From Escherichia coli (GTDB lineage Bacteria > Pseudomonadota > Gammaproteobacteria > Enterobacterales > Enterobacteriaceae), in the NCBI RefSeq assembly GCF_044647545.1, contig NZ_CP172818.1: DNA of 64,000 nt. One strand, given 5' to 3'. Positions 23,201 through 24,299 of the stretch are shown piece after piece; within the stretch, counting starts at the first letter, position 1, and every line of letters begins with the position of its first letter. The notes beneath the pieces were generated by a model that did not search any database, was not told the DNA's origin, and saw only the letters and a program-made list of their open reading frames with translations. A program made the position numbers and the translations under genes.

Positions 23201-24299
23201 TCATAACCCTGCTTTCAAACTTGCTTCGATAAATTGATCCAGGCTGCCGTCCAGCACGGCCTGCGTGTTGCGGGTTTCTACCCCGGTACGCAGATCTTTA
23301 ATGCGGGAGTCATCAAGGACATAAGAACGAATCTGGCTGCCCCAGCCGATGTCAGATTTGTTATCTTCCATCGCCTGTTTCTCAGCATTTTTCTTCTGCA
23401 TCTCCAGTTCATAAAGCTTCGCTTTCATCTGCTTCATGGCCTGGTCTTTGTTCTTGTGCTGGGAACGGTCGTTCTGGCACTGGGTCACGATCCCAGTTGG
23501 GATGTGAGTAATACGCACCGCAGATTCGGTACGGTTAACGTGCTGACCGCCCGCGCCGGACGCGCGATAAACGTCGATGCGCAGATCCGCCGGATTGATT
23601 TCGATATCGATATCGTCATCAACTTCCGGGTAAACAAACGCGGAGCTGAACGACGTGTGGCGACGACCGCCGGAATCAAACGGGCTCTTACGCACCAGGC
23701 GGTGAACGCCGGTTTCTGTACGCAGCCAGCCGTAAGCGTAATCGCCGGAGATTTTGATCGTCACGGATTTAATACCCGCCACTTCACCTTCCGACTCTTC
23801 GATGATTTCAGTTTTGAAACCACGCGATTCTGCCCAGCGCAGATACATACGCTCAAGCATGCTCGCCCAGTCCTGTGCTTCCGTGCCGCCAGACCCCGCC
23901 TGAATATCGAGGTAGCAGTCGGCGCTGTCATATTCGCCAGAGAACATACGGCGGAACTCAAGCTGCGCCAGTTTTTCTTCCAGGGCGTCGAGTTCAGCAA
24001 CGGCTTCGTTAAAGGTTTCTTCGTCGTCAGCTTCTACAGCCAGTTCCAGCAGACCAGAAACATCTTCCAGCCCCTGTTTCATTTGGTCGAGGGTGTCGAC
24101 AACGGCTTCGAGGGAGGAACGCTCTTTACCCAGCGCCTGTGCGCGTTCGGGTTCGTTCCAGACATCCGGCTGTTCCAGCTCGGCGTTTACTTCTTCCAGA
24201 CGCTCTTTCTTGGCGTCATAGTCAAAGATACCCCCTAAGAACGTCGGAGCGTTCCGTGAGGTCCTGAATGCGATTATTTACCGGATTAATTTCAAACAT
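23201..24299 (-). CDS. prfB: peptide chain release factor 2 (needs programmed +1 frameshift at codon 26)
   Basis: Start ATG at 24297-24299; in-frame UGA after 25 codons inside CTT-AGG-GGG-TAT-CTT-TGA-C; the remaining 340 codons are in the +1 frame ending at 23201; GGQ motif present. Confidence 0.95.
24222..24245 (-). other. prfB: prfB programmed +1 frameshift site (internal Shine-Dalgarno AGGGGG + CUU UGA C)
   Basis: Minus-strand sequence TCTTAGGGGGTATCTTTGAC read directly. Confidence 0.9.

Follow-up and report, generated by a model that had tools for sequence, protein, structure and literature searches.

An intact classical programmed +1 frameshift site in prfB of an Escherichia coli genome

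Results

Layout of the prfB locus

The window, by which we mean the whole 64,000-nt stretch of contig NZ_CP172818.1 (assembly GCF_044647545.1) analysed here, carries prfB on the minus strand in the order recJ-prfB-lysS, the conserved, standard arrangement in E. coli. The coding region is split between two frames. Read 5′ to 3′ on the minus strand, the short first frame (ORF0) runs ATG TTT GAA ... CTT AGG GGG TAT CTT TGA, and a long open reading frame continues from within the stop codon in the +1 frame. The features of the locus are as follows.

24390-26123, minus strand: recJ, the upstream neighbour of prfB.
23201..24299, minus strand: complete prfB coding region, join(24299..24225, 24223..23201), giving the 365-aa release factor 2 (RF2).
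24222..24299, minus strand: ORF0, an ATG and 24 more sense codons up to an in-frame UGA; termination there would release a 25-aa peptide.
24231..24236, minus strand: internal Shine-Dalgarno (SD)-like element AGGGGG (codons AGG GGG, Arg-Gly), 3 nt 5′ of CUU and 6 nt 5′ of the stop.
24228..24230, minus strand: spacer codon UAU (Tyr24), the E-site codon while CUU occupies the P site.
24224..24227, minus strand: slippery run CUUU, made up of CUU Leu25 (24227-24225) and the U of UGA.
24222..24224, minus strand: premature in-frame UGA at codon 26, an RF2-specific stop and the RF2 sensor.
24221, minus strand: C directly 3′ of UGA, so that the stop has the weak termination context UGAC; the same C ends GAC, the first codon read in the +1 frame.
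23201..24223, minus strand: +1-frame open reading frame, 340 codons by translation, which opens with GAC (Asp26) and runs to the stop.
23686-23678, minus strand: SPF stop-codon recognition tripeptide, RF2 residues 205-207.
23561-23563, minus strand: Ala246 (GCC), prfB codon 246.
23551-23543, minus strand: GGQ catalytic motif, RF2 residues 250-252.
21674..23191, minus strand: lysS (lysine-tRNA ligase), starting 9 nt past the prfB stop.

An earlier note on this DNA had placed an intact classical prfB +1 frameshift cassette at 24222-24299. That position is right, but the strand, which was left unstated, is minus, and the C that completes the stop-codon context lies at 24221, one base outside the range. 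The cassette itself is as the note described: its elements are exact, it is identical to that of K-12, it is annotated as a programmed frameshift in RefSeq and it joins the two frames into full-length RF2.

The 16-nt cassette AGGGGGTATCTTTGAC had a single match on both strands of the 64 kb, even with two mismatches allowed. The chance expectation is 0.04 matches, and 4 of 100 shuffled sequences yielded one. At least 12 complete genomes are 100% identical to the window over 1300 nt of the prfB region, and on such identical DNA RefSeq labels the gene prfB, joined from two pieces by a 'programmed frameshift', with a window-equivalent extent of 24299..23201. The 25-aa ORF0 peptide had no Pfam match. 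An open reading frame on the opposite strand (23234..24238, plus strand, 334 aa) has neither a Pfam match nor a RefSeq annotation, and we set it aside as a by-product of codon bias.

The joined product

Joining the two frames yields a protein that scores 525.9 bits against TIGR00020 (NCBIfam prfB; cutoff 370) and covers positions 2-353 of the 353 in the profile. It falls below the cutoffs of the related families, with 304-306 bits for the RF1 models (cutoffs 400-423) and 125.5 for PrfH (cutoff 166.65). The solved E. coli RF2 structure PDB 1gqe aligns with it over residues 1-365, and the solved E. coli RF2 chains of 1gqe and 1ml5 match it end to end, including the junction ...RGYL|DYDAKK.... 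By these profile and structure matches, the two frames together encode the whole of E. coli RF2 (365 aa), a class I peptide chain release factor.

Comparison within E. coli

The earlier note had proposed alignment to a reference prfB as the check on its claim. The gene in the window differs from prfB of K-12 MG1655 (b2891) at 17 of 1099 nt, in every case downstream of ORF0 and the cassette. Sixteen are synonymous, and one changes an amino acid (Ala246 in the window, Thr246, ACC, in K-12). ORF0, the SD-like element, the spacer and CUU UGA C, together with 100 nt 5′ of the ATG, are base-for-base those of b2891, and the difference nearest the cassette is a synonymous TAT/TAC at 24218. Thus no divergence that would abolish the SD-like element or the UGA context, which the note had named as its refutation, was found against b2891. 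The gene order recJ-prfB-lysS and the product length of 365 aa are also the same. Ala246 is the canonical, fully active residue of non-K-12 E. coli, whereas Thr246 is a peculiarity of K-12 with reduced activity (PMC5373646), so the source of the window is not a K-12 derivative.

All but one of 5426 complete E. coli genomes have the prfB locus. In 5400 of these 5425, the 81 nt at 24299..24219 that span ORF0 and the cassette are 100% identical to the window, and the other 25 carry one change each. We also searched with 251 nt that run across the recJ-prfB intergenic region into the start of prfB. The two copies that diverged most had ORF0 and the cassette unchanged and differed outside them. The invariance of ORF0 within E. 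coli fits the 1.5% divergence of the gene as a whole, at which about one change would be expected in 81 nt.

Three complete genomes carry a different allele of the same gene at the same locus: NZ_CP031355.1 (E. coli O145 RM8995-C1), NZ_CP029973.1 and NZ_CP024650.2, which are mutually unrelated. One G is lost from the run of five, leaving AGGGG for AGGGGG, and ORF0 is otherwise identical to that of the window. With this loss, prfB is read in a single frame throughout (...LRGIFDYD...) and the UGA sensor is bypassed; RefSeq annotates these copies as a plain CDS with no frameshift. They are either homopolymer miscalls or natural alleles without RF2 autoregulation. The window, unlike these three genomes, keeps all five G residues. 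As the three were found, the check we used could have revealed a damaged cassette, and that of the window is undamaged.

Conservation of the signal across species

We scanned species-representative genomes with a pattern consisting of CTTTGAC and the downstream +1-frame codons, leaving the 9 nt upstream free. CUUUGAC is therefore set by the search, and only these 9 upstream nt are independent evidence. The scan yielded 120 loci from Enterobacterales, Vibrionales, Aeromonadales, Alteromonadales, Xanthomonadales, Betaproteobacteria and Bacteroidota. In all 120, a purine-rich hexamer, [A/C]GG[G/A]G[G/A], lies at exactly -9 to -4, i.e. 3 nt before CUU (AGGGGG in 77 loci, CGGGGG in 29, AGGAGG in 11, AGGAGA in 2 and CGGAGG in 1). 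The spacer codon is TAT in 98 loci, TAC in 21 and TTT in 1. A +1 open reading frame of at least 300 aa with both SPF and GGQ follows in 104 of the 120; the other 16 fail, mostly where the +1 frame runs past the end of the fetched DNA.

The third codon positions within the SD-like element are nearly frozen across species (entropies of 0.0 and 0.08 bits among 103 distinct sequences), whereas those of the twelve upstream codons reach 1.3-2.0 bits in the same set, and synonymous sites of ORF0 vary freely. The codons themselves are also unusual. By the codon usage of the window's own genes, AGG makes up 1.1% of Arg codons and GGG 13.7% of Gly codons, so that the probability of AGG GGG given Arg-Gly is 0.0015, and the AGG of the cassette is the sole AGG, AGA, CGA or CGG among the 25 Arg codons of prfB. 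The frozen third positions and the rarity of AGG GGG reflect selection at the nucleotide level, on the signal rather than on the peptide.

A published survey found the prfB frameshift in 64% of 12,753 species genomes, with the consensus AGGGGG-NNN-CTTTGAC; CTTTGA occurred in nearly every motif, the stop was TGA in > 99% and the following C was highly conserved (PMC12421855). The window matches this bacterial consensus at every defined position and in its spacing, and nothing sets it apart. Minor variants belong to other clades and not to the window: CGGGGG, AGGAGG and the TAC spacer in our scan, and TTTTTGA and degenerate SD elements in published work (PMC12421855, PMC10798248).

Strength of the signal and its surroundings

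We calculated pairing with GAUCACCUCCUUA, which we take to be the 3′ tail of 16S rRNA (it lies outside the window) and used as the anti-SD. The predicted duplex with AGGGGG has an energy of -10.7 kcal/mol, about 4 sd below the mean for prfB 9-mers (-1.9, sd 2.1). A second sequence in prfB, GGAAGGUGA at CDS position 508 (23784-23792, minus strand), reaches -10.9 kcal/mol. Since GGAAGGUGA pairs as well as the frameshift element, pairing strength alone is not diagnostic, and we dropped it as a stand-alone test.

Local mRNA structure was likewise dropped as a candidate stimulator, the predicted folding of 24299-24150 being unexceptional (z = -0.6). A search of 23000-24600 against Rfam at E ≤ 1 gave no match; Rfam has no family for this element, and a structured RNA it is not. 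Scanning for promoters and terminators near the prfB start gave nothing beyond shuffle expectation. Separately from the frameshift signal, and outside it, the recJ-prfB intergenic region contains a hairpin at 24340-24370 (minus strand; -20 kcal/mol, z = -3.9). The T-run that follows this hairpin, and with which it would be an intrinsic terminator, is on the plus strand, antisense to recJ and prfB, and not on the coding strand.

Origin of the frame break and route into the second frame

Three other accounts of the split gene were weighed against a programmed +1 shift. The frame could also be broken by a lesion in a pseudogene or by an indel from sequencing or assembly, and real or apparent breaks do occur elsewhere in the window (in uacT, in scpA and in IS1 and its neighbours). 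The prfB break, however, is shared without change by 5400 of 5425 complete E. coli genomes, and all 120 loci from other species have it at the orthologous position. The signal flanking it is conserved under nucleotide-level selection, and RefSeq calls the break programmed. In addition, RF2 is, to our knowledge, the only factor that reads UGA, and it is essential, which also counts against a lesion; we regard the chance that prfB is simply broken here as negligible. The two frames might instead be expressed separately, with the large one translated by independent initiation or by re-initiation after the UGA, and AGGGGG does resemble a ribosome-binding site just upstream of the +1 frame. Yet no ATG, GTG or TTG occurs in that frame from the upstream stop (TAA, 24280-24278) to the Met73 codon at 24082, which sits 47 codons downstream of the frameshift junction. 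Initiation at Met73 would lose residues 1-72, and thus independent initiation cannot yield full-length RF2. The solved RF2 chains have ORF0 residues 1-25 fused to Asp26 onward, and a fused junction peptide has been reported in the literature for E. coli RF2. Separate expression of the two frames is, like the lesion, hardly conceivable.

A third account keeps the frames joined and restores the frame otherwise than by a +1 slip of tRNA-Leu: the ribosome would shift by -2 or hop, or transcription would slip on the T-run. Since -2 and +1 shifts enter the same frame, such kinetic routes are indistinguishable from the sequence alone. Their products differ: after a -2 shift the protein would have 366 aa, with an extra Phe (...GYLFDYD...), whereas RF2 sequences on deposit have 365 aa and read ...GYLDYD.... 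As to slippage, RNA polymerase needs a run far longer than three T to slip efficiently, and the run of three T present here is far too short. The 3-nt spacing between the SD-like element and CUU, found in 120 of 120 loci, is a feature specific to the +1 mechanism (PMC12421855), as also stated by Devaraj and Fredrick (2010) in so far as they are cited in PMC10798248. We consider these other routes extremely unlikely. For the programmed +1 shift, all elements stand at canonical spacing, the joined product is full length, conservation acts at the nucleotide level and the locus offers no alternative route to full-length RF2. We found no sequence evidence against an intact prfB frameshift site, and we put the probability that 24299..23201 (minus strand) is E. 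coli prfB with an intact classical autoregulatory programmed +1 frameshift site at about 98%.

Other frame breaks in the window

The earlier note had set the prfB site against breaks in uacT and scpA that, it held, lack any recoding signals. These and a second recoding site, in IS1, lie at the following positions.

19395-20833, plus strand: uacT, with a 10-bp deletion relative to K-12 at ~20484-20486.
47538-48307, minus strand: IS1 element with 23-nt inverted repeats, the second genuine recoding site of the window.
47999-47989, minus strand: IS1 A6C -1 frameshift motif TTAAAAAACTC.
starting at 50180, plus strand: scpA, with a run of five C at 50348-50352 against six in relatives, one C being lost.

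Neither the uacT nor the scpA break looks like recoding, and the note was correct on this point. The 10-bp deletion in uacT is common to 47 complete E. coli genomes and is present in the nearest complete genome, where the gene is annotated as a frameshifted pseudogene; it is thus a genuine lineage marker and not an assembly error. The scpA break has the context TTG CCC CCT ACG and lacks both a stop at the site and an SD-like element spaced so as to function. Its five-C state occurs in 3 of 5421 complete genomes.

The IS1 insA-insB′ site resembles that of prfB in being a ribosomal recoding site that RefSeq labels 'programmed frameshift', as it does for the same insertion in ECONIH1 and FDAARGOS_497. 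It differs from prfB in that the shift is -1 and not +1, the slippery run is A AAA AAC, and there is neither a stop-codon sensor nor release-factor autoregulation. Compared with the same insertion in ECONIH1 and FDAARGOS_497, the window copy carries an additional 4 nt (47998-48001) directly 5′ of the motif. With them, insA and insB′ are fused in frame (a 141-aa open reading frame, 48252..47827), until the frame is lost anew through a 2-nt deletion at 47840. The 4-nt insertion was seen in none of the IS1 copies at ~70,000 places in complete E. coli genomes, where the best full-length match was 96.3%. The A6C -1 frameshift site is therefore not preserved in its normal form in the window.

The IS1 changes belong to a larger cluster. 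Relative to the closest complete genomes, the 46.7-50.4 kb region contains ~10 private indel events and four substitutions in ~4 kb, and the scpA break lies at its edge. At 46480/46481, 1346 bp are deleted, and with them part of a LysR regulator gene, an azoreductase gene and the start of a DUF1471 gene. Over 46.4-50.5 kb, the best match among complete E. coli genomes was 99.6%, and all matches contain the 1346 bp that are absent from the window. By comparison, the window is nearly the same as its closest relatives for most of its length: the first 33 kb show two small indel events, and 33011-46480 is 100% identical. The excess of indels over substitutions in 46480-50352 suggests either that assembly or polishing went wrong locally, near the multi-copy IS1, or that this accessory island is decaying in an unusual way. 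The changes in the cluster, the IS1 indels included, may be private mutations or assembly errors, and the sequence by itself fits both. Elsewhere, three differences from FDAARGOS_497 appear to be intergenic: a 2-nt deletion at ~606, the absence of ~99 bp between bglA and gcvP at ~33008-33010 and a 7-nt deletion between mscS and fbaA at ~59265-59268.

The prfB site had also been offered as a positive control for the assembly. A genuine recoding site is indeed preserved at prfB, but as a guide to quality elsewhere it is weak, because an intact site at 24.2 kb is silent on the sequence at 50.3 kb and because the window has a private indel cluster at 46.7-50.4 kb that includes the altered IS1 recoding site.

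Discussion

The arrangement of elements in the window would support the following course of events. Ribosomes would start at the ATG at 24299, read 25 codons and pause, CUU (Leu25) occupying the P site and UGA-C, a weak stop, the A site. With plentiful RF2, the UGA would be recognised and a 25-residue peptide released; with scarce RF2, the pause at UGA-C would persist. AGGGGG would then pair with the anti-SD of 16S rRNA, and the abnormally short 3-nt spacing would destabilise the E-site and P-site tRNAs. The peptidyl-tRNA-Leu would slip from CUU to UUU, GAC would enter the A site and reading would continue in the +1 frame to give the 365-aa RF2, placing RF2 synthesis under negative feedback. 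RF2 would thereby set its own rate of synthesis. The pause, the re-pairing of tRNA-Leu from CUU to UUU and the defining features of the site are described in PMC12421855 and PMC10798248, and on the identical sequence in E. coli the +1 shift proceeds at ~ 50%, with an efficiency inverse to the RF2 level (PMC10798248; PMC12421855). From these experiments on identical sequence, we infer that frameshifting and its response to RF2 would operate likewise in this strain. The feedback set-point might differ from that of the K-12 loop, given the fully active Ala246 and a possible role of its own for the 25-residue ORF0 peptide; no data point to either, and we think such a difference very unlikely.

A parallel is the eukaryotic antizyme, whose frameshift site is UCC UGA U. 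As in prfB, the shift is +1, takes place at the sense codon before an in-frame UGA and acts as the sensor for autoregulation. Unlike prfB, antizyme is an unrelated gene that senses polyamines and not a release factor, and its shift is stimulated by a downstream pseudoknot and an upstream element, as opposed to the SD:anti-SD pairing of prfB.

Knowledge of the prfB frameshift goes back to 1986, and the E. coli gene is reportedly the original programmed +1 frameshift site, by the accounts of Craigen and Caskey in 1986 and Weiss et al. in 1987. It has lately been surveyed in > 12,000 genomes (PMC12421855). The site described here is thus a textbook case, already known, and brings no new biology. 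The frame break in the essential prfB is programmed and must be taken neither for a pseudogene nor for an error of assembly, and the site provides a template of real recoding signals against which breaks such as those in uacT and scpA can be judged.
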